The notes below the pieces were generated by a model. That model had not been told where the DNA came from. It was given only the letters and a program-made list of their open reading frames with translations, and did not search any database. Of a DNA stretch of 64,000 bases, positions 33,738 through 59,009 are shown piece after piece. Source of the stretch: Eledone cirrhosa. Lineage: Eukaryota. The DNA lies in assembly GCA_964016885.1 (NCBI GenBank), contig OZ024743.1:242110001-242174000 (forward strand). Reading direction: 5' to 3'. A program made the position numbers and the translations under genes. Within the stretch, counting starts at the first letter, position 1, and each line of letters starts with the position of its first letter.

Positions 33738-33971
33738 TTATTATTATTATTATTATTGAATGCTATGGTTGACGGAGGCTCGGCTCTGTAAGGTATTGTA
33801 AATTTTGACCGCTATAACAATTGGAAATTGTTTAAAACTTTAACCAAATTGTAGACAAAAACACCCTCCTCCTCGTGAGAGGGGTCTTTCTGCCCGTTAT
33901 TTGGCGCTTCGGGGTTAAATAACCGCTTATTGCGGTTTTGTGCCCAATATTTATTTTAAACAAAAAAAAAC

Positions 33972-36074
33972 ATGGCTACGAAAAAGAGTTTTCATAGATC
34001 ACTCCCACTCATTCCGTCTTCTTCTTTCTCAATCGTCACTACAGCAGAGAGAAGATTGTCTCTCTCCCTCCCTTCTCTAAATGTGTCTCTCTCCCTCCCT
34101 TCTCTTTCGCAAGCGATGCCAGTAAAGAAAAATCACGTGCAAAGCGTGCAAAATATCTCCACGACGACGACCACAACGACGAAAAAGGTGTGCGGTAAAT
34201 ACGAAAACCCATTTCATTCGTCTGACGTCAGGAATAATAGCAGTAGCAGCCGTAATAACAACAGCAACAGTGACAATGAAAACAACAGTAGCAGCCTCAA
34301 CAGCAACAGCAGCAGCATAAACAACAACAGCATTAGCAGCAGCAACAACAACAACCACAGCAACAGTGGCGGCGGCAGTAGTCGTAGTACCTGCAGCAAC
34401 AACAAAAGTAACAGCAGCTCTGACGACAACAACGACAACAACAGCAGCAAAGAAAAACCAATCTCGTTTGCAGGTATCGCGAAGAACCTGGAAACAATCC
34501 TCATAACAAATGAGGAATTAGAGGAAGCGAAGAAGATGGTGACAAAAACTGGACACAGAGCAATCTGCAAGGCAGCCGAAAAATCTTTCGAAACCCAGCA
34601 GCACTGTACGGTCACGTACCGTACAGTAAGTACAAAATCCCGTAGGGTGGAAAGAGCCACAGAGGCTCAAATACAAAAAGCCTTGGGGTCTGTGTGGCAG
34701 CGGAAAACGCACATCACCCGAGGCAAGAAATATGCCACCGTAGACATGCTTTTTGCCACACCCCAGGAGGCAAAGGCTCAATCCGTAGTGACCCTAAGGA
34801 GCGAGGAAATGGTGTTGGTGCCCTCCTACTGCGGGCAAAAAATTGTGAGGGTCAAACTGACCCACGTCCCCCCCGGGATGGCCCCTTCTTGGCTGGCCGC
34901 GTCTGTCCTCGTCGGAATCGAGGACAAAACAACTGTACTGCAAGTACAGAAAAAAGTAAGAGAAGATTGGGTCGGCACCCCCATTGAGATGTTAATCCAA
35001 ACCAACCAGGAGTGCATCGAAGCTATCCCGGATGTGATAGACTTCGATAACGGCACTCAACTGCCCATAAGTGTTGAGGGAAAACGCCCGAAATGCTTTC
35101 GCTGTGGATCGAAGACTCACCTCAGGGCCTTCTGCAACGAGAAGACCCTGAGAAAGGAGAAAACCCCCCTCCTTCCGAAACCGGCTCCACGGCTACCAGC
35201 AACAGGACAAGCGGCAACCAGGAACGATAGGTCCGTGGCACCCATACCCACGCCACGGAAATCAAAAACAGCAGCAGCAGTGGAAATATTAACAACAACA
35301 ACAGCAATACCAAATGCAGCTGCAACAGAGACTCCAGTGCAAACATCACCAACAACAACAAGTGAAAGAGTGGAGCTGGTACCCCTCCCCGACCTCACAG
35401 AATCAGACATGGAGTGTGAGGTGGGAGAGAGATGGCAAAAGGTCGTAAGAAGGCACAAACGCAGAAGCAGCGCATCGTCGCCTTTGAAAAGGGAGCAAAG
35501 AAATGAGAAAAGGGTAAAGTCTACTGCAAAGAGACCCATAGCAGCAACACCACCAACACCATCACCACCCACACTAGCACCACCATCACCACCGGCGAAA
35601 ACCCCACCGCCAACAACACCTTCAACACCACCACCACAAGCACCAACATCGCAAACACAACAACAAAACACACAAACCCAGCAACAACGACAAGAAAATA
35701 GCAGAACCACACCCCACCCCCAGAAAAACAAATGCACGGCAATAAATACACACAACAAGAAACTAATGACTTACATAATTGAACACACAGACATTTCACA
35801 ACACGACTACATAATACCAGCACCAATCAAAACGCCAACTAACATAAGACTGCTAAAAATAGCACAGAAACAATACACAAACATTAAAACGAAATTCCCC
35901 AACGCAGTTGGTGATTTCAGGGACCTAGGAGGAACTATCAATCGAAGAGTATATTCAGACATTCTCTTAGAAGAGCCAACGACCAGCCGAAGGGACGATT
36001 CAACGGTCCCTTCACCAGACGATCAAGTGAAAAGGGATGTAAAAACCATCCCTCCTCTACGAAAAGTACGGTAA
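33972..36074 (+). CDS. LINE ORF1 protein (gag-like, CCHC zinc knuckle)
   Basis: 700-aa open frame with CFRCGSKTHLRAFC, N/S-rich and P/T/Q-rich segments, just upstream of ORF2. Confidence 0.85.
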   Translation: MATKKSFHRSLPLIPSSSFSIVTTAERRLSLSLPSLNVSLSLPSLSQAMPVKKNHVQSVQNISTTTTTTTKKVCGKYENPFHSSDVRNNSSSSRNNNSNSDNENNSSSLNSNSSSINNNSISSSNNNNHSNSGGGSSRSTCSNNKSNSSSDDNNDNNSSKEKPISFAGIAKNLETILITNEELEEAKKMVTKTGHRAICKAAEKSFETQQHCTVTYRTVSTKSRRVERATEAQIQKALGSVWQRKTHITRGKKYATVDMLFATPQEAKAQSVVTLRSEEMVLVPSYCGQKIVRVKLTHVPPGMAPSWLAASVLVGIEDKTTVLQVQKKVREDWVGTPIEMLIQTNQECIEAIPDVIDFDNGTQLPISVEGKRPKCFRCGSKTHLRAFCNEKTLRKEKTPLLPKPAPRLPATGQAATRNDRSVAPIPTPRKSKTAAAVEILTTTTAIPNAAATETPVQTSPTTTSERVELVPLPDLTESDMECEVGERWQKVVRRHKRRSSASSPLKREQRNEKRVKSTAKRPIAATPPTPSPPTLAPPSPPAKTPPPTTPSTPPPQAPTSQTQQQNTQTQQQRQENSRTTPHPQKNKCTAINTHNKKLMTYIIEHTDISQHDYIIPAPIKTPTNIRLLKIAQKQYTNIKTKFPNAVGDFRDLGGTINRRVYSDILLEEPTTSRRDDSTVPSPDDQVKRDVKTIPPLRKVR

Positions 36075-36109
36075 GTGGTCTTTCCAATCTTTTCCACTCT
36101 ATTTTAAAC

Positions 36110-39100
36110 ATGACCTCACTCAGAATAGGCAGCATAAATGCGCGTGGCTTGGGGTCGTCATGGAAGCAGGGTCACCTGCTCAACGACCTCAGGTCACTAA
36201 ACATAGATGTAGTGGCCATCAGCAAGACCAGAATCTCTGAAGCACGGGCCTTCGCACCGATCTTCGGCGGCTACGATGTGTAGGCATCTTCCAGCCGTCC
36301 TGGATCGGGGGGAGGAGTTGCTGTGCTTTTTCGGAGAGGTTTGGATCTCGCCATACGGGCCATCTTCCTGGACCCAGAGGGTAAGTTGGTGGTGCTGGAC
36401 GTGACCAGCGGAGACGGGCAACCTTTCAGGCTAGTGGCCGTCTATGCCCCGACAGGAGCAGGGCGGCCTGATTTCTTCCGGCGTCTGGAGACCTTTCTTG
36501 GAACGTCCCGCTCTTTAGTGTTAGTGGGCGACTGGAACGGGATCTTAGATGCACGCTGGGACTGTGTGGGATTAGCGGATAGGGGTGGAGGGTGCAAGAG
36601 CCTCACCAACCTGCTCAGGCGTTTTGAACTGTCTGACAGGTACCGATTGGATTTCCCGAATGTGCCAATGTGGACTTGGACAAATCGCATAGGGTCATCC
36701 AGATCATATCTAGATAGAGTATTTTGTAGGGAAATAGATAGGTCTAGCATAGGCTGTCCACAATTCAAGATAGTCAGCTACACGGACCACAAATTCGTGA
36801 TCTGTGTGCTTGACTTAGATAGGCTTCATAGACGAGGACCCAGCTACTGGAAGCTAAACGCGTCCTTACCAGTGCGCAAGGCCTACAGAGACCAGATTAG
36901 CGAACTTGTTAAGCGGGCGTTGACGGCGGCCATCGTCAACAACAAGTGGTGGTTTGCTCTGAAAAGAGCGATTAGAATAGAATCAATTAGGTTTAGTAAG
37001 GCTTTAGCAATAGAGAAAAATAGAGCAGAGGGAGAACTAGTTAGAAAATTAGACGAGGCGCTTAGCAAAGGCATTGCGACCGACGTGCTTGCGGCGAAAT
37101 TGGCCCTTGACCAATTCTTCAATGCAAAGCATGAAGGCTGCGTTGTCAGAGCTAGGGTGCGTGCTCTCAGACACGAGGGGTCGAAAGCCGTTCGATGGGC
37201 CCAAGTGGCGGAGGCACGTCGTGGCAACAAAGCCACGATCCGGTCTTTGGTGGACCACGACGGGCGCATGCTACTCGATCCCGGGAAAATGTGTGAAGCT
37301 TTTCAGCGACACTTCGCTCAGCTGTTCGGGGGCAGTGGTGGGCCGGGTCGAGGGATGGACTTTAGTGTCTACCTCGACGGACTGCCGCGGCTCTCGGCCA
37401 CTGAGGCGGAGTGTTGCGAAAAGCCGATAACAGCCGCTGAAGTAAGGGAGGCAATGACTGGCTGCACAATGGGTAAATCGCCTGGTTTGGATGGTCTGCC
37501 CTATGAACTTTACGTACAGATGCCAGACTTGTTCGGAGGCCTCTTGGCGGACGTCTACTGCAACTGGCAACAGAACGGGAAAATTCCCAGTTCCGTGAGC
37601 CGAGGAGCGGTGGCACTGCTGAGAAAGGATCCGAACAAGGGGGATAACATAGATAATTTCCGGCCCATAACTCTGCTAAACACAGAGTTCAAGATTTTGG
37701 CCAAGGTGCTAACTAAGAGGTTGGCGCTTGTCGTTGGTGGTCTGGTGGGAGAGGCGCAGACATGCGCCATTCCCGACAGATCCATCCACGACAACCTCCA
37801 CCTCATGCGATACATCGTAGAGAGGGTAGCTAGGGCACCTGGCACGGGTGGGTCCTTGATCAATTTAGATCAGTCGAAAGCTTTCGATAGGGTCGACCAT
37901 CGTTACCTAGCGGCAGTCCTGAGGGCGGCTGGCTTTGGGCCCGTCTTCAGAGGCTGTGTCGCTGCCATGCACAGCGACATCTGCTCTGTGGTGAGAGTGA
38001 ACGGTCACCTGTCGGAACCGTTCAACATCATGTGCTCGGTCCGCCAAGGATGTTCCCTCTCGTCCCTCTTGTACGTATTGACTCTCAAGCCATTACTGCA
38101 CAAACTGGAGACGTTGAGGGGCGTCCCGCGCGAACTAGGATGCGGAAGATCCGTGTCAGCATATGCGGACGATGTCACCGTAGTGGTGTCGAATGCCAAA
38201 CACATCGAGGCGATCGGCACTACACTAAGAGAATACGAAGCGGTGACAGGAGCAATGATCAACCAGGAAAAGTCAGTGGGCCTGCAGCTCGGCACCTGGA
38301 GAGGCATGTCCATGCCGTCCAACAGCGTCGTCGGACGCTGGACAGACGGACCGGTTAAATTGCTAGGAGTCTGGTTCGGTTCGGACCTCCAGACGGACAA
38401 AAACTGGGACGAGGTGACGAGCAGGGTAGCTTCTCTCACCCAGAAATTGGCGGAGTAGAAGCTATCCCAGAAAGGTCGAGCGGAGGTGGCTAACGCGTAC
38501 ATCGCGTCTGTCATCTGCTACCGCCTGACCGTCGTACCTTGTCCTAAGCCTCGCCTGACTGCGCTGGAGCGTTTGCTCTTTCGCTTTTTGTGGAAGGGAC
38601 GCGCTCCGATGGTCAGGCGGTCCATCTGTTGTCAACACCCGCTACGTGGAGGGCTGGGCATGCCGTGGCTGATGATGCGCAGGCACGCGCTCAGGCTACG
38701 ACATCTCCACCTCTTCCTCGACGGTGATCAGGTGTGGTCGCCGTTTGCTAGACACGTATTTCCCCAGCTCGTTTCCTTGACGGAGCTGCAGTCCTGGGTC
38801 AAGCGAAGACCGAGAGGGAGCGCCTGGAGACTGGAATGTCTTCAGGCGCTCACAGCCCTCGACCAATCAGGCAATGTGATCGGTGGAAACTCCACCTCGG
38901 CGTTCTATAGAGGATTAGTGGAGGGGAAGAGCGACGACGTACTTGGGGAAACTCTAGGCGTCGACGAAAATCAACTAGCCAATCTCTTCGGAAGGACTTT
39001 CGGGCCAGGGCCTATGGACAACTTCCAGAAATCTCTGGCCTGGCAGTGCTACCGAGGAGCCTTGCCAGTTCGGGATATACTCTACAGGCATGGAGGTGCC

Positions 39101-39529
39101 GTCAGCCGGGCATGTCCGAGATGCGCGCAGGGCAACGAAACCGTCCTGCACGCACTCGTCCAGTGTCCGAAAATTGCTGACTTGTGGGTTTATGTCGAAC
39201 ACCTGCTGTCGCGTGTAGGACGGATCCGGCTATCATCTGAGTCCATCGTGAGGATTTCCCCGCCCTCCTCCTTTAGCCGGGAAGGGCAGGCAGTTTTTAT
39301 CTGTCTGGTGGCCATGGCGAAAGAGATAGTATGGTCGACACGTTTGAAAGGGCTGAAGACGAGCACTTACCTCTTCGGTGATGCCCTGATTGACTTTTTC
39401 AAATTTCATTTGAAAAGGAAAATCAGAGTAGAGAGGGAAGTGCTCTCTTCCCAGCATTTTGTTGAAAGATGGGTGAGAGAAGCAAGAATGGCCCAAGTGA
39501 ATGGGCCTACTCTGAGTATATATCTGTAA
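36110..39529 (+). pseudogene. LINE ORF2 (APE endonuclease, reverse transcriptase, C-terminal zinc finger) with two in-frame TAG stops
   Basis: ATG 36110 (MTSLRIGSINARGL), GDWN, YLDR, TDH, KSPGLDG, RPITLLN, KAFDRV, QGCSLS, YADD, CPRC..H...C; stops at 36281 and 38456, all in one frame. Confidence 0.93.
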
Positions 39530-39857: not shown

Positions 39858-42800
39858 CTAGAATCTCAGTCATTGATGTTAGTTAACTGGAAAGTCCGTT
39901 GGAATGAATATCAAGCCACTACCTGCAGCCTCAGATATTCAGGACGTATCGGAGGGTTCTTGCTGTTCCCAGCAAGCATGCCTTTTGAAGCGTTCCAAAA
40001 AGCGTGAAGGGGCCGATTTTCTTTAACCATTCCTGGAAACTTTTGGAGATAGTCCCCAGTGCGCCTATGACAATCGGGATCACTTTGACTTCATGGCAGT
40101 TCCAAATCCCTTTTACCTCCCACTTTAAGTCCTGGTATCGGTTAATTTTTTCCCTCTCCTTCTCTTGCACTCTCGTGTCGAATGGACAGGGCACATCCAC
40201 GATCAGACACGATCTTTTTTTTTGTCCACAACCACCAGGTCAGGTCTATTGTGTTCCAGTTTCTTGTCCGTCTGTATCCAAAAATCCCACAGCACCTTCA
40301 CCTGATCGTTCTCCATCACCGCCTCTGGCTTATGCTCATACCATTTCTCAGAATGTGGTAAATTGTTTACTTTGCACAGGTGCCAGTGGATCACCATGCC
40401 CATCACATCATGTCTCCAGCCCTTATAGAGGGTCTGGGCTAGGTGTTTACACTCGGATACAATGTGAGCCACAGTCTTCTCTCTCTCTCCACAGATCCTG
40501 CACAGTGGGCTAGCCTCCTCCTTGTAAATATGCTGTTTCAACCACTTCGTTTTGAGGGCCTGCTCCTGCGCAGCCATTAACATTCCTTCTGTAGCCTTTT
40601 TAAGGTCTCCTCTTCTTAACCAGTTCCATGTCTGTGGATCTCTAAATTCAGTTTTCTCAAAGAAGGTACTATGAAGGGATTTTTCCTGAAGGCTGCTCTT
40701 TCTCCTTGATGTTATTTCCTCCTTGGATATCCCCTGGCCTATTGTCCCCTCCTTCAGTACAGTTCTGAGCATTGGCTCCTTACTATCTGTCACGTATTTG
40801 TGTAGGTTGTTTTTCTCCATCTGAACACAGTCCTCTATGCTGATAAGACCTCTTCCACCCTCAGATCTCCTTAGGTAGAGTCTATCGACATCACTCCTCT
40901 TGTAGAACATGTTGTAGATAGTCAATAGCTTCCTAGTCTTCCTATCCGTTTCTTTTTGTTCAGCAACATTCCATCTCAGAATTCCCGCACTGTACCTAAT
41001 AATAGACACAGCTCGGGAATTTACTGCGCTTATGGCATTTCTGCTGTTCAGATGTGACTTCAATACGCTCCTTATTCTCCGAATGTATTCAGTTCTTAAC
41101 AATTCATTCATTTTTTTTGTTCTTTATGCCATCAGCCTCCAGAACGCCCAAATACTTGTATCCTTCCTCAGAGTCAATTTCCTTTATCATCTCACCTGTT
41201 GGTATCTGGATTCCGTTACTTCTGCTCAACCTACCCCTCCTCATCACAATGACTCCACACTTACTAATACCAAACTGCATACATATATCACTGCTGAAAA
41301 TACGGACAGTGTCAACAAGCACATCCAACTCCTTCTCACTCTTCCCGAAGAGCTTAAGATCGTCCATGAAGTGGAGGTGATTGAGGCTTTTGGTGATCCA
41401 AGAATGAGGCACCATGTCAAATGCCTTTCTGTAGTCTATCCATCCCATGGCAAGATCAGTGTGTCTCCTCCTGCAATTCCCCATTACCATATTATCAATA
41501 AGTAACTGGTCTTTTGTACCACGTGACTTCTTTCGGCATCCTTTCTGTTCGTCCGGTAACAAGTTGTTTGTGTGGAGGTGATGGTAGATTTCCTCAGACA
41601 CAATGCTCGTCAACAGTTTCCACATTACGGACAGACATGTGATAGGTCTATAGTTGGTAACATCATTACCCTTGATTCGGTCTTTCATTATCAGAACTGT
41701 GGTACCTTTTGTCAACCACTCTGGTACCTCACCTGACATCAAGCAGTCATTGAACATGGTTGTCAGTTTCGGGTGGAGGGATGTTATATTTTTAATCCAA
41801 TACCCCTGCACACCATCTGGGCCTGGTGATTTCCAGTTGGTTAGCTCTTTGGCCTGCCCCTTAAGAGTTTCAACTGTGATACTCAAATCAGTTTGTTGGT
41901 GTGCCTGCTCACCGATCTCCCTCTGTACTGTCTCAATCCACCCTGCCTGGTCATTATGTCTAACATGCTGCTCCCATATTCCTCTCCAGAATGTTTTAGT
42001 TTGTTCCGCCTCAGGGATCAAGTCGTTGCCTGTTTCTTTCCCCTCAAGCTGTCCAAACAGCATCTTCTGGTTGTTGTCGAACATGCGGTTCTATTTATAC
42101 TGACTGACTCTGTTCTCGTATCGCCTGATTTTTGCACTCTTTGCTACAATGCGTTGCTTCAGTTCCTCTATGATAATATTTAGCTTTTTCCTCCTAGTTT
42201 TGTACTTTATTTCCAGTCTATTTTTAGTGCCTATGTTTTTTAGTGTCCCATTCAGTAGTGACTCAAGCTTTCCAATGTCATTTCTCATTTCCCTGATTTG
42301 ACCACTCAGTCGTTTCTTCCACCAAGGCTCTGCTCTTTCTTGTCTGTTGTTTCCTCTCGCTTTTATACCAAGTAGTTTCCTCACCGTATTTGCTGTTGCT
42401 TTGAGGATATTGTTGCACTGGTGAAGGCTCCTCGCCTCAAGGTATGGGATGACTTTGTTTACCTTAGCTGTTGTTTCTTTTAACTTTTTCCTGTCTACAA
42501 ATCTTAGGTTCATAGGTCTCCCACTATCATTGTTCAATTCATCTACCACTAAATTTAGGATGTCAACCGAATCTTGTCCTATCCCGTCAGCATTCATCTC
42601 CTCAGTGGCCGTATCTCTGTTCCGGGTATTATTTATCTCAGTATTCAGATCATTGTCTGCTTCGGGTGGTTCCTCCGTTCTCTCGACCCCTTCACCTTCA
42701 TTTCCCACTGGCTCGTTTGCCTGGCATACTCCACCCTCCATCTCCAAGCTAATCTCTCTGCTCAGTTCCTCCAGTTCCAGCTCGCTTATCCACTCATTAG

Positions 42801-44125
42801 TTCTTATTACCCGAGCCTGCCCGGCCAATTTTTGTTCATCTAATTTAAATAGACCAATCTCGTTCCAGATGTTATGCATCCGTCTCCTATAGCCCCTCTC
42901 CTTGGGGTTACTTTTCAGGTAACATTGCATAGCAGTTTTATTCAATTCTTTCTTCCAGTTGGTTCTGGTCCCTTTCCTTCTTCTTCTTCCTCCGACACCA
43001 GCAGTATTTGGTTGACAGCCAGGTTCCCGCTGCTGAGCCAGGGAGCACCTGTTGGGTGAGAGTCTGTCACATGACGTTCTAGTCTCCATTTCACCGTTAT
43101 TCGAACTGTTTAGGTTCGATATTTAAACAATCTTATCGAGGATTGGCGAATGTATGGTTACATAATCATCTGTGGATTCACCGTCTCCGGTGGTTGCACC
43201 GCTCCACTTGGCTCCTGTGTGGCATTATCAGCACGCTGTAGGCGAACACAAATAAACAAACAAACAAACAGGCAGAAAAAACCCCAAAAATGAATAAGCA
43301 TAAGTTTCATTGTAATGTAGTGTTCGAATGTCTGACATAGTTTTTCCCCTCTCTTCTCTGTCCGTCCGCTTGTTTCTCTCTTCATTCTTATTTTCTTTAC
43401 GTTTTTTTTTTGTTTTTGTTTTTCTCTGTTTGTTTTTCTCTTTTTTTTTTGTTGTTGCTGTGCTGCTTTGGTTTTAATGTTTGTTTTTTCTTTTGAATCT
43501 ATCTATATATTTTGATGCCTTCCTCTTTTTTAGTAGGAATTCTATAATGTGGTGGCAGCAACTAGCAGGAAGCAATGGGAGAGAATAGTGGCGGTAGCGA
43601 TACTGAGACAGTGGTAGTGGTGATGTCGATACTGAGGCAGTGGTGGTGGTGATGTGATCGTATTACTGTAGTGTTGGTGTTGTAGCGGTGGTAGCAATGA
43701 AGGAGTGGTGGCGGCGGTGATGGGATAGTGGTAGTAATGATGGCAGTGGCCGTTATCTGGCTGTTGTGTTTAGTGTACACAGAGAGGTTATGGGGTAGGT
43801 GGTGTATCTAGTTTCTGGTGTTGGTGAGATTGGTGTTGTTTGTCTATTCTATATAGTGTAGACAGAGGAGGGGGGGTTCTTCTTCTTCCATTTATAGCCA
43901 TTTTCTTTTTTGAATATACAATGTACAATACAAAGTTGAATATTTGAATATTTGAGCCTTATAACAATATATTTTGGGTCCGAATTTTTTGGGGGCTCAA
44001 GCCGGATGCTTTACGTAGCATTTGTACTAAGAGTTGTTATTTCACAAATGATTTAAATATGTTAAAAATTCAAAACTTACGGGAGCGATTTCATGACCTT
44101 CTACCACCTCGTGTGTCTTCTTCCC
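39857..44125 (-). mobile_element. R4/Dong-type LINE copy 2 (full-length extent, disrupted)
   Basis: ORF pieces 43089->39931; stop at 42091, ~234-bp RT deletion near 41385, frameshifts; ~1-kb 5' region; (ATT)n flanks. Confidence 0.93.
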
Positions 44126-44166
44126 TTATTATTATTATTATTATTATTATTATTGTTATTGTTATT

Positions 44167-46873
44167 CCTTGAATCTCAGTCATTGATGTTGGTTAACTGG
44201 AAAGTCCGTTGGATTGAATATCAAGCCACTACCTGCAGCCTCAGATATTCAGGACGTATCGGAGGGTTCTTGCCGTTCCAAGCAAGCATGCCTTTTGAAG
44301 CGTTCCAAAAAGCGTGAAGGGGCCGATTTTCTTTAACCATCCCTGGAAACCTTTGGAGATAGTCCCCAGTGCGCCTATGACAATCGGGATCACTTTGACT
44401 TCATGGCAGTTCCAAATCCTTTTCACCTCCCATTTTAGGTCCTGGTATCGGTTAATTTTCTCCCTCTCCTTCTCTTGCACTCTCGTGTCGAACGGGCAGG
44501 CCACATCCACAATCAGGCACGATCTTTTTTCTTTGTCCACAACCACCAGGTCAGGTCTATTGTGTTCCAGTTTTTTGTCCGTCTGTATCCTAAAATCCCA
44601 CAGCACCTTCACCTGACTGTTCTCCATCACCGCCTCTGGCCTATGCTCATACCATTTCTCAGAATGTGGTAGATTGTTTACTTTGCACAGGTGCCAGTGG
44701 ATCACCCTGCCCATCACATCGTGTCTCCAGCCCTTATAGTGGGTCTGGGATAGGTGTTTACACTCGGACACAATGTGAGCCACAGTCTCCTCTCTCTCTC
44801 CACAGATCCTGCACAGTGGGCTAGCCTCCTCCTTGTAGATATGGTGCTTCAACCACTTCGTTTTGAGGGCCTGCTCCTGCGCAGCCATTAGCATTCCTTC
44901 TGTAGCCTTTTTGAGGTCTCCTCTTCTCAACCAGTTCCATGTCTGTGGATCTCTAAATTCAGTTTTCTCAAAGAAGGTACTATGAAGGGATTTTCCCTTA
45001 AGGCTGCTCTTCCTCCTTGATGTTATTTCCTCCTTGGATATCCCCTGGCCTACTGTCCCCTCCTTCAGTACAGCTCTGAGCATTGGCTCCTTACTATAGG
45101 TCACGTATTTGTATAGGTTGTTTTTCTCCATCTGAACACAGTCCTCTATGCTGATAAGACCTCTTCCACCCTCAGATCTCCTTAGGTAGAGTCTATCGAC
45201 ATCACTCCTCTTGTGGAACATGTTGTAGATATTCAATAGCTTCCTAGTCTTCCTATCCATTTCTTTTTGTTCAGCAACATTCCATCTCAGAATTCCCGCA
45301 CTGTACCTAATAATAGACACAGCTCGGGAATTTACTGCGCTTATGGCATTTCTGCTGTTCAGATGTGACTTCAATACGCTCCTTACTCTCCGAATGTATT
45401 CAGTTCTTAACAATTCCTTCATTTTTTTGTTCTTTATGCCATCAGCCTCCAGAACGCCCAAATACTTGTATCCTTCCTCAGAGTCAATTTCCTTTATCAT
45501 CTCACCTGTTGGTATCTGGATCCCGTTACTTCTGCTCAACCTACCCCTCCTCATCACAATGACTCCACATTTACCAATACCAAACTGCATACATATATCA
45601 CTGCTGAAAATACGGACAGTGTCAACAAGCACATCCAACTCCTTCTCACTTTTCCCGAAGAGCTTAAGATCGTCCATGAAGAGGAGGTGATTGATGGTAA
45701 GCTCTCCCCTTCCCAACTTGTATCCTGCTCTCACTTTTCGCAGCATAATGGTCAAGGGCATCAGGGCAAGGACAAACAACAGAGGGGACAGGCTATCTCC
45801 CTGGAAGATACCTCTCTTGATCTTCACGCTTCCCAAGGATACTCCAGTTGATGTCAACTCTGTCTCCCAGGACCCCATACTCCTGCCCAGCAACTGTCTG
45901 ATGTTATCTGCCACCCTGAAGATCTCCAGGCTTTTGGTGATCCAGTAATGAGGCACCATGTCAAATGCCTTTCTGTAGTCTATCCATCCCATGGCAAGAT
46001 CAGTGTGTCTCCTCCTGCAATTCCCCATTACCATCTTATCAATAAGCAACTGGTCCTTTGTACCACGTGACTTCTTTCGGCATCCTTTCTGTTCGTCCGG
46101 CAACAAGTTGTTTGTGTGGAGGTGATGGTAGATTTCCTCAGACACAATGCTCGTCAACAGTTTCCACATTACGGGCAGACATGTGATAGGTCTATAGTTG
46201 GTAACATCATTACCCTTGATTCGGTCTTTCATTATCAGAACTGTGGTACCTTTTGTCAACCACTCTGGCACCTCACCCGACACCAAGCAGTCATTGAACA
46301 TGGCCGTCAGCTTCGGGTGGAGGGATGTTAAATGTTTAATCCAATACCCCTGCACACCATCTGGGCCTGGTGATTTCCAGTTGGTTAGTTTTTTGGCTTG
46401 CCCCTTAAGAGTTTCAACTGTGATACTCAAATCAGTCTGTTGCTGTGCCTGCTCACCGATCTCCCTCTGTACTGTCTCAATCCACCCTGCCTGGGCATTG
46501 TGTCTAACATCCTGCTCCCATATTCCTCTCCAGAATGTTTTAGCTTGTTCCGCCCCAGGGATCAAGTCGTTGCCTCTTTCTTTCCCCTCAAGCTGTCCAA
46601 ACAGCATCTTCTGGTTGTTGTCGAACATGCGGTTCTGTTTATACTGACTGACTCTGTTCTCGTATCGCCTGATTTTGGCACTCTTTGCTACAATGCGTTG
46701 CTTCAATTCCTCTATGATAATATTTAGCTTTTTACTCCTAGTTTTGTATTTTATTTCCAGTCTATTTTTAGTGCCTATGTTTTTTAGTGTCCCATTCAGT
46801 AGTGACTCAAGCTTTCCTATGTCATTTCTCATTTCCCCGATTTGCCCACTCAGTCGCTTCTTCCACCACGGCT
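44167..46873 (-). mobile_element. R4/Dong-type LINE copy 3 (5'-truncated, young)
   Basis: Same 3' end as copies 1 and 2; (ATT)n on both sides. Confidence 0.93.
44241..46832 (-). CDS. Reverse transcriptase-CCHC-restriction-like endonuclease ORF (N-terminally truncated)
   Basis: 863-aa uninterrupted frame: KAFDMV, QGDSLSP, FMDD, YKYLG, GGRGL, CRICGEREETVAHIVSEC, RHD, NRPDL..D..K..RY. Confidence 0.9.
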   Translation of the reverse strand: MRNDIGKLESLLNGTLKNIGTKNRLEIKYKTRSKKLNIIIEELKQRIVAKSAKIRRYENRVSQYKQNRMFDNNQKMLFGQLEGKERGNDLIPGAEQAKTFWRGIWEQDVRHNAQAGWIETVQREIGEQAQQQTDLSITVETLKGQAKKLTNWKSPGPDGVQGYWIKHLTSLHPKLTAMFNDCLVSGEVPEWLTKGTTVLIMKDRIKGNDVTNYRPITCLPVMWKLLTSIVSEEIYHHLHTNNLLPDEQKGCRKKSRGTKDQLLIDKMVMGNCRRRHTDLAMGWIDYRKAFDMVPHYWITKSLEIFRVADNIRQLLGRSMGSWETELTSTGVSLGSVKIKRGIFQGDSLSPLLFVLALMPLTIMLRKVRAGYKLGRGELTINHLLFMDDLKLFGKSEKELDVLVDTVRIFSSDICMQFGIGKCGVIVMRRGRLSRSNGIQIPTGEMIKEIDSEEGYKYLGVLEADGIKNKKMKELLRTEYIRRVRSVLKSHLNSRNAISAVNSRAVSIIRYSAGILRWNVAEQKEMDRKTRKLLNIYNMFHKRSDVDRLYLRRSEGGRGLISIEDCVQMEKNNLYKYVTYSKEPMLRAVLKEGTVGQGISKEEITSRRKSSLKGKSLHSTFFEKTEFRDPQTWNWLRRGDLKKATEGMLMAAQEQALKTKWLKHHIYKEEASPLCRICGEREETVAHIVSECKHLSQTHYKGWRHDVMGRVIHWHLCKVNNLPHSEKWYEHRPEAVMENSQVKVLWDFRIQTDKKLEHNRPDLVVVDKEKRSCLIVDVACPFDTRVQEKEREKINRYQDLKWEVKRIWNCHEVKVIPIVIGALGTISKGFQGWLKKIGPFTLFGTLQKACLLGTARTLRYVLNI

Positions 46874-46899
46874 TATTATTATTATTATTATTATTATTA

Positions 46900-46932
<33 letters not shown>

Positions 46933-47415
46933 TGTGTTATATATTATACATACATATTATACAGATATATAGATATAGATAGATTGGTCCGTGCGTAGAT
47001 GTGTCTGTGAATACTCATTAGTCATTCACCTATATTTTAGAGTAACAAATGGGTATTAGTATGCCGGCGATTGTATGTAACACTAGAATATGTTGTATTT
47101 CTGAACTCGCATTTAGGTAGGCTACCTACTCTGTATGATATTACTTGTGTGTTTCTAGTCAAAATAAATGTGGTAATATAGTAATGTTTATTGTAATAAC
47201 TATTGCGTCAAATTTATTGATTTCATGCAGATTTATGGCTGAATAAATTTTAGTTAATATAATAATAATGGTTTTCGTAGTTTAATTCGTAATTGAAGTT
47301 TGCCAATTTTCTGTCTTGTTAGTATGTTGTTAGTATAAATATTTCAGTAAGTTATATAATATAGGCCGATGATTAAACTCGTCAGCCTTTGCAAAAGTAA
47401 TACTGCAGATATATA

Positions 47416-56792: not shown

Positions 56793-57390
56793 GAGGCTTT
56801 TTTTTTTTCTTCTTTCCAAAATGAAAAATATATATATAGCGAACCTGCAACCATTAAGGTTGTTCTTCTGCGGGTATGTCAACATTTATAAAACAAATTT
56901 TGTATTTTATCTGATGAAAGCGCACCAATATTTGCCTTGGTTGCCCTTGAAATATATATAATAAAATAATTATGGTTTTATAAATATAGTTTCCATTTAT
57001 TAATACAATGAATATTTACTCCACTAAATTGTTGAGTGCTTTATATCAGTTATAAATCTTTTAAGTTTGTTGAATTCCAACAAATTAAATATAACCTTTG
57101 TATATATATATATACAAAGTTTTATAACTGATATAAAGTACTCAACAGTTTAGTGGAGTAAATATTCATTGTATTAATAAATGGAAACTATATTTATAAA
57201 ACCATAATTATTTTATTATATATATTTCAAGGGCAATCAAGGCAAATATTGGTGCGCTTTCAGCAGATAAAATACAAAATTTGTTTTATAAATGTTGACA
57301 TACCCGCAGAAGAACAACCTTAATGGTTGGAGGTTCGCTATATATATATTTTTCATTTTGGAAAGAAGAAAAATAAGCCTCATTTTCTAA
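56784..57390. mobile_element. Inverted repeat with ~270-bp arms carrying hammerheads
   Basis: Arms 56784-57056 and 57121-57390; TA flanks. Confidence 0.85.
56904..56967 (+). ncRNA. Minimal type-I hammerhead ribozyme
   Basis: attttat-CTGATGA-aagcgca...tgccctt-GAAAT-atat-ATA-ataaaat; 7-bp stem I. Confidence 0.72.
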
Positions 57391-57725: not shown

Positions 57726-57775
<50 letters not shown>

Positions 57776-57945
57776 AAAGAAAATTTTGCTCTAAATTGCT
57801 GAATACAATAAATGTAATCTGAGTTTTTCGAATATTAATAATAACATTCGATTCGTTTGCAATTTCGCAAACAAGCCTCAATTTTATAGCCATGTCAGTA
57901 GGATGAACACTTCATTATTGCTCTGGTGTTGGCATGTAAACAGAA

Positions 57946-57990
57946 CTGCAGACACTAATGTTTCTGGGTATCACTCTTCGTCAGTACAGC
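57946..57990 (-). ncRNA. Type-I hammerhead ribozyme
   Basis: ctgta-CTGACGA-agagtgataccca-GAAAC-attagt-GTC-tgcag. Confidence 0.75.
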
Positions 57991-58379
57991 TCACTGTTCA
58001 CCTGCCAAACTGTCAGAGCTAGTGAAAATATATGCTATTTTCAAAAATACACAGTCACTGATCGGCCTGATATGCATATTAGCAGACTGCTGGTTGATCA
58101 GTCATATCTGCATATTAGCAAATCCACTGATCAGCCAGATTTGCATATCAGCAGACTGGCCAGTCAGGTTCCTGTATACGGCTTTGCCAAATTCAAATGA
58201 AAAAGAAAAATTTCGTTCTACATGGCTGAATACAATAAAAGTAATCTTAGTTTTTCGAATATTAATAATAACATTCGATTCATTTGCAATTTTGCAAACA
58301 TGCCTCAGTTTTATAGCCATGTCAGTAGAATGAACACTTCATTCTTTGCCCTTGTGTTGGCATGCAAACAGAACTGCAG

Positions 58380-58423
58380 CTGTACTGATGAAGGGTGATA
58401 CCCAGAAACATTAGTGTCTGCAG
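58380..58423 (+). ncRNA. Type-I hammerhead ribozyme
   Basis: ctgta-CTGATGA-a-gggt-gat-accc-a-GAAAC-attagt-GTC-tgcag; canonical core, stems I and II pair. Confidence 0.82.
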
Positions 58424-59009
58424 TTCTGTTCGCATGCCAACACAAGAGCAAGAATGAAGTGTTCATTCTACTGATATGGCTATAAAATTGAGGCTTGTTT
58501 GCAAAATTGCAAACGAATCGAATGTTATTATTAATATTCGAAAAACTCAGATTACATTTATTATATATATATATATACCCAATACAAATTGTAGGTCATT
58601 GTTGTGTGCATGACAAATTATCTACTAACTGGACTATTGCCGTCATCGATGACTAGGTATTTGGTGTCGCATTTCTGTCCATAGCATTTGCTAGTTTTAC
58701 TTCAGATGCTCAGGTCACCCGGATTAAAAAACAAGAAGTGTTTATCTTTTTCATGTTAGAATATTCAGAAACTTTACAAGTGGGAGGTGTGAAATTTCTC
58801 AAATGACTGAAGAAAAATTCCTTAAGATTTAATTTTTCTCTGCTTTTCCTTCGTTACTTCCTAACATGATCGCACACATGAGACATCTTTACCTCATATG
58901 TTGATGTATTTTAACTAAGCACATTTAGTTTTGTATTTCAAAGAAACGAAGTATGTTGATGGCATGATTTGCATGTCTTTACTAAACAGCAGTAAAGGTT
59001 GATATTGAT

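Follow-up and report, generated by a model that had tools for sequence, protein, structure and literature searches.

A 0.8-kb insertion in the genome of Eledone cirrhosa carries an inverted arm that joins its body at the predicted cleavage site of a hammerhead ribozyme, and this raises the question of whether the 5' end of the copy records the cutting of an RNA before it was turned into DNA. The insertion lies in a stretch of 64,000 nucleotides (assembly GCA_964016885.1, contig OZ024743.1, positions 242,110,001 to 242,174,000), here called the window. An earlier note on this DNA had proposed that the copy was reverse-transcribed from a ribozyme-processed multimeric or circular RNA and then folded back, as would be expected for a retrozyme. 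What hammerheads do in Penelope elements is called unclear in PMC8557442, in vivo evidence on them was lacking according to PMC4209133, and for the anole Penelope cleavage was dispensable in vitro (PMC11167929). Inverted copies, one-sided tails and mobilisation by Penelope machinery are already known or have been proposed; what is unusually clear in the family described here, with a unit of about 438 nt, is the genomic record of probable cleavage and probable paired priming. In the literature covered, mostly papers available without subscription, we found neither a mapping of genomic 5' ends to the cut of a Penelope-type hammerhead nor a strict rule of one short and one long 3' end.

Anatomy of the insertion

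The features of the insertion, which is one of thousands of genomic copies of a small non-coding mobile element, are collected in Table 1. Unit positions are numbered from u1, the first base past the predicted cut, with negative numbers upstream of the cut.

Table 1. Coordinates of the insertion and its parts within the window
Feature	Position	Strand	Remarks
Cut-to-cut unit	57951..58378	-	428 nt in the window copy (family about 438 nt); non-coding, strongly self-paired
Head-to-head body/arm junction	58378..58379	.	2-nt overlap at the predicted second cut
Type I hammerhead crossed by the body	57943..57992	-	core CUGACGA/GAAA; predicted cut 57951/57950
3' partial repeat, u1-u180	57771..57950	-	ends at the 'long' priming site, the one with a Penelope-type tail
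Inverted arm, u398-u438 plus u1-u148	58378..58566	+	189 nt; ends at the 'short' priming site
Arm hammerhead motif	58378..58426	+	identical to the family majority; predicted cut 58418/58419
Long internal hairpin of short internal repeats	58030..58170	-	z -3.7; 0 of 200 shuffles equally stable
(TA)n target flank, 3' end of body	57729..57773	.	seen in the sequence
(TA)n target flank, 3' end of arm	58563..58577	.	seen in the sequence

On the minus strand, the homology of the body to the unit holds as far as 58379, the C preceding the cut, and is lost at 58380; on the plus strand the arm begins at 58378 with AGCTGTA, the 5' strand of stem I. Body and arm therefore overlap by 2 nt and the junction lies no more than 1 nt from the cut, so the start of the body at 58378/58379 that the earlier note had given was recovered. 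The same was true of the layout that it described (a body running from the cut through one unit, across a hammerhead and into a repeat that ends in (TA)n), of the cut GTC/TGCAG at 57951/57950 on the minus strand, and of the repeat before the TA flank, put at about 175 nt and measured here at 176-180 nt (57771/5-57950) with 90.5% identity to the 5' copy. The unit of 428 nt was correct as the spacing in the window copy, but this spacing is private to it and stems from a 15-nt deletion plus small insertions. Similarly, the crossed hammerhead, described as intact, has kept its core, but its stem II is weakened by a private G>A at 57975 that breaks a pair, whereas the arm hammerhead corresponds to the family majority. 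The arm does begin at stem I with the overlap mentioned, but across the family arm starts at this position show no clear departure from randomness (7/56, 4.2 expected, P 0.13), and overlaps of 1-7 nt occur at 54 of 98 family junctions, so that the 2-nt overlap is ordinary. The arm is likely a second cDNA. One junction at the cut may by itself be due to chance; the excess across the family is not.

Other repeats and mobile elements were seen in the window. Another inverted repeat, with 261-nt arms (97%) and a short TA-containing spacer, lies at 56801-57376 and is possibly a MITE or a fold-back element, and the translations at 33960-39529 and 40203-46943 pointed to a non-LTR retrotransposon with two ORFs and to another element that encodes an RT, the latter in several copies.

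A hammerhead with a non-canonical stem II

The motif consists of an 8-bp stem I, the core CUGANGA plus GAAA, a 4-bp stem II, a 3-bp stem III and the triplet GUC; the core, stem I and stem III of a type I hammerhead were found in the window and in about 229 sampled copies. In the family majority stem II is closed by A.A and the canonical G10.1-C11.1 pair is absent. Two autonomous Penelope families of the same genome have U.U at this place, as does the axolotl retrozyme HHR_Amex2, which cleaves and resembles the window family in the weakness of its stem II base (PMC7229834). An Rfam search in gathering and E-value modes matched no hammerhead family, and covariation was weak, with one pair showing two-sided change among 14 sequences from two subfamilies. 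The stem III loop gives a 10-nt palindrome, for which a dimer helix of -8.8 kcal/mol is predicted, while in the predicted minimum-energy fold of the monomer the core CUGAUG is paired with the stem III loop; from this pairing we infer that the ribozyme would be blocked as a monomer and active as a dimer.

Variants of the motif were also observed. An older subfamily (L151-L160) has another stem II loop and, in two copies, a compensated stem I pair, and both hammerheads of one insertion (L126:1650-1660 and 2088-2098) carry the same altered, still palindromic stem III loop.

A family of non-coding tandem units

In this genome of 3.0 Gb there are 1,114 exact matches to a 34-nt core and 3,281 unit candidates. 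Units are arranged head to tail, copies with two and three hammerheads exist (three in L123), and the 40 best of 4,263 candidates include no long tandem array. Each of the six frames of the circular unit contains 4-12 stops, which rules out coding or rolling-translation potential, and the circular fold is far more stable than its shuffles (minimum free energy z of -5.6 for the window unit and -10.8 for the family majority, 60 shuffles each). Among 166 sampled segments the 3' end carries a run of TA in 137 cases, an inverted partner is present in 118, and the 3' ends form two clusters, at u143/148 and u165-182, spaced 32-37 nt. An inverted 5'-truncated copy, a tail of 30-40 bp and a microsatellite target are thus all present, as described for Penelope elements in PMC8557442; two internal initiation sites are reported for Penelope in PMC11167929. 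With a hammerhead in every unit, head-to-tail units, no coding capacity and strong self-pairing, the retrozyme identity suggested by the earlier note was upheld, and by the features tested, all of them read from sequence, the element would belong with the animal non-LTR retrozymes and work like them.

A SINE-like element of about 190 nt, with a tRNA-like head and variable truncation, was repeatedly found joined to the retrozyme at u109, in the ATTATTAATATTCG hairpin (L062:1343-1526, L116, L076, L073 and others), with varying duplications or deletions. There were 46 SINE-joined sites and 177 uninterrupted ones at u109, and the joins would reflect either targeted insertion or template switching; ARAGORN detected no tRNA gene in the inserted piece.

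A second hammerhead repeat family (L161-L169, L418-L447; 355 exact matches to a 34-nt motif) has units of about 310 nt with A-U at the stem II base. It shares the anatomy described above, being inserted into (TA)n with inverted arms and with two 3' ends that differ by about 33 nt, and in a small sample inspected by eye 2 of 30 copies, and one partner, ended within 5 nt of the cut.

5' ends accumulate at the predicted cut

Two samples were picked by exact motifs located downstream of the cut, which leaves the 5' ends unselected: sample M comprised the first 100 of 1,386 matches, and sample R matches 24-100 of 210, after leaving out 23 within the range of M (four R loci had previously been chosen under other selections). 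In sample M, 19 of the 79 segments reaching u10 stopped in u1-u10, where 3.4 were expected, compared with 1/60 in the next 10 nt. The result was replicated in sample R, with 11/50 (2.1 expected) and 1/39, respectively. Taken together, 30 of 129 segments stop at +1 to +10 downstream of the cut versus 2 of 99 at -9 to 0 upstream, and the mode is u1, with 10 cases; three of the 30 stops, including two of the ten at u1, are ambiguous by a long palindromic overlap. The plot of copy 5' junctions against the cut, which the earlier note had put forward as a check, therefore revealed the pile-up that it predicted. The excess in u1-u10 also stood out against the neighbouring u11-u40 (P 1e-4) and was kept in copies lacking arms (9/37, 1.7 expected). 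At the second cut, stops no more than 2 nt away occur in 3 of the 27 segments sampled by pattern, where 0.5 were expected (P 0.016), and stops no more than 12 nt away in 10 of the 28 copies selected by unit, the window copy and one duplicate being left out. Read-through was nevertheless the commonest outcome, 60 of the 79 cDNAs in sample M passing the cut. As far as genomic copies can tell, the excess is likely a fossil sign of the ribozyme cutting RNA in living cells before this RNA was copied to DNA.

A second bump of 5' ends was observed in the upstream unit at u175-u184, where the long priming site is rich in U (18/91 in a 20-nt bin), and may come from collision with the partner cDNA or from an alignment effect.

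Most two-armed insertions have one short and one long 3' end

Both 3' ends could be classified in 66 of 100 two-armed insertions, and after removal of one duplicate a short end was paired with a long one in 61 of 65 (P 2e-14). Sample R gave 26/28, with 12/40 unclassifiable, so that overall 87 of 93 classifiable insertions combine one short and one long 3' end. These data fit arms that are two cDNAs primed on opposite target strands, a reading that agrees with the extension of both strands and the predicted dimer in PMC11167929. Arms also agree with their bodies at subfamily sites (91/96 at u86, for example), and rare variants are common to arms and bodies 6 times above permuted pairs, as would be expected from one RNA or one source, although gene conversion at a later time may have played a part.

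Alternative explanations

We regard it as unlikely that the 5' ends result from stalling of the reverse transcriptase, or from a preference in joining, along the extended stem I of an uncleaved RNA in which the hammerhead is inactive or irrelevant. Stops are indeed raised as a ramp from +1 to +20 that tracks the 3' strand of this helix and falls sharply at the strand end; moreover, the stem II base is non-canonical, cleavage can be dispensed with in vitro by the anole Penelope (PMC11167929), and 8 of 9 dimers of Xenopus retrozymes failed to cleave in vitro (10.64898/2026.07.22.740005). However, the mode is the cut base itself, and stops at +0 to +3 exceed those at +4 to +40 (P 5e-5). The 3' strand of the strongest internal hairpin, a more stable obstacle, collected 18 stops where 34 were expected from the background, a deficit that speaks against a simple helix stall, and 16 stops were found at the cut versus 1 over five other TGCA sites, which also rules out TGCA microhomology as the origin of the peak. 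Fold-back, in which the end of a cDNA re-anneals to itself and is copied into an inverted arm, was the source of the arm according to the earlier note. In the window it has appeal, with an arm nested in the body and a junction that is a near-perfect hairpin, though trimming would also be needed; the nested geometry recurs in 23 of 57 pairs and variants are shared by arms and bodies. Self-copying should nevertheless leave the same 3' end on both sides, where 87 of 93 pairs have different, complementary ends. The short-end segment is also the longer-reaching one in 36 of 61 pairs, against 25 for the long-end segment. Among 57 pairs, four others with long overlaps having been removed, it extends further upstream in 22 and yet has no tail, so that in these neither arm can have been copied from its partner and both must have been templated by RNA. 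Fold-back thus fails as a rule, this part of the earlier note did not survive at the level of the family, and we hold it to be very improbable as the general origin of the arms.

The possibility that a ligated circular RNA of about 438 nt is the source of copies longer than a unit, with linear monomers, or circles that the ribozyme has reopened, behind the stops at the cut, falls only a little short of an even chance in our judgement. Over 266 hammerhead crossings there was no excess of indels, so read-through junctions are precise and sloppy template jumping at the cut can be discarded. One copy, L123, has three hammerheads; the lack of a long tandem array among the best candidates, the very stable predicted circular fold and the circles formed by known retrozymes (PMC7229834) point the same way, and a lineage that is truncated at its 5' end would somehow have to regain length to survive. 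Rare variants were common to tandem passes (22 in 18,352 sites, 4 times permuted), and a diverged tandem master was rejected, there being no convincing variants specific to unit position (four sites nominally at P<0.05 among about 136 tested). On the other hand, no 5' end lies at the cut in a closed circle, which could not yield a second-cut stop, so the window copy requires either a linear multimer that was cleaved in part or a jump from end to end. After the second crossing 24 of 32 segments stop within 113 nt, versus 43 of 190 after the first (0.012/nt and 0.0026/nt, respectively; P 5e-8), and synthesis is therefore not memoryless; since stops become steadily more frequent with length, templates of finite size and a limit on the length of synthesis look alike in these data. 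The sole end-to-end pairing, the extended stem I, would be formed by a linear tandem too. The multimeric template of the earlier note was supported, in that the template was multimeric or was read past a hammerhead. A partly cleaved linear multimer is the best account of the window copy, for which a circle is not needed; circles may account for the longest copies and, as their source, can be reconciled with the explanation given below.

Penelope-type elements in the same genome

Copies encoding GIY-YIG and RT domains are abundant (more than 10,000 candidates). None of 80 loci, a small sample of these, was an autonomous element with this repeat for a pLTR. Autonomous families of Penelope type, each with a hammerhead different from the others, numbered at least four (L272-L300, L304-L308, L310, L316, L319, L250), together with long open frames of 750-1,096 aa in the Penelope-type loci L277/L317, L301, L302 and L303. 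Retrozyme copies that adjoin Penelope ORFs (L159, L251/L313, L310) were considered as possible signs of a partner, but look like separate insertions, L159 being the one that was read base by base.

Proposed mechanism

We consider it quite probable that the element is a retrozyme of about 438 nt inserted into (TA)n by a Penelope-like RT/endonuclease, with cDNAs on opposite strands, one of them made off a hammerhead-generated end. Multi-unit transcripts would undergo only partial self-cleavage, the monomer being predicted to sequester its core CUGAUG and the palindromic stem III making a 10-bp dimer helix possible. The pattern of 3' ends suggests that priming then uses two U-rich stretches inside the unit, u143/148 and u175-180, each serving one target strand; cDNAs stop in excess at the cut and just downstream of it, although most read through it precisely, and the two products are joined head to head through short overlaps. 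In the window copy, the cDNA from the long site would have passed one hammerhead and halted at the next cut, and that from the short site would have halted 40 nt past its hammerhead. Weighing against this explanation are the A.A base of stem II, the failure to match Rfam, the weak covariation, a stop excess that is a ramp over +1 to +20 and not a single base, the lack of an autonomous partner among the 80 loci and the anole results of PMC11167929. A more specific version seems to us slightly favoured by the data: an asymmetric RT dimer would always begin one cDNA at either of two fixed sites, separated by 32-37 nt and each used for one nicked strand, with RNA of one lineage as template for both, and a dimer-gated hammerhead closed by A.A would cleave the germline templates.

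Ribozyme-defined 5' ends have a precedent in R2 elements, which carry HDV-like ribozymes, a different ribozyme in a different class of retroelement. The pieces of twin-primed L1 insertions do not overlap, unlike the cDNAs of this family, both of which cover the same sequence.

The family resembles metazoan non-LTR retrozymes, as presented in PMC7229834 and 10.64898/2026.07.22.740005, in having tandem units that code for no protein, measure a few hundred nt and contain a type I hammerhead, and in its low GC content, self-pairing and high copy number, and its presence alongside Penelope elements. It differs from them in forming dispersed insertions of 0.3-2.5 units with inverted arms and tails, where long arrays are described, and its unit, known here from the genome alone, is slightly above the 170-400 nt of the expressed circles; the parts of both papers available contain no mapping of genomic 5' ends to the cut. 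The traits shared with EN+ Penelope-like elements (PMC8557442, PMC4209133 and PMC11167929) are 5' truncation, partial tandems, an inverted 5'-truncated copy, a tail of 30-40 bp that is often confined to one end, insertion into AT-rich or microsatellite DNA, a pair of neighbouring internal sites of initiation with extension of both strands, and a hammerhead in which helix III is palindromic and position 9 is followed by an extra nucleotide. Unlike those elements the family has no ORF, and in 87 of 93 cases exactly one of the two ends bears the tail, whereas the statements of these papers on this are qualitative. Its 5' ends mark the cut, while RNA-seq of the anole Penelope gave no reads ending there (PMC11167929).

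If the proposed mechanism is true, one rule would account for both inverted pLTRs and one-sided tails, and these insertions would be a fossil read-out of the Penelope mechanism, providing genomic evidence of hammerhead cleavage in vivo in the Penelope/retrozyme cycle. The anatomy of the insertions directly backs the proposal that animal retrozymes are moved by Penelope machinery. A family of 438 nt that records both the cut and a strict two-site priming offers a small substrate with sharp predictions for the questions of hammerhead role and priming, and the same survey of junctions can be applied to any genome that holds such a family.
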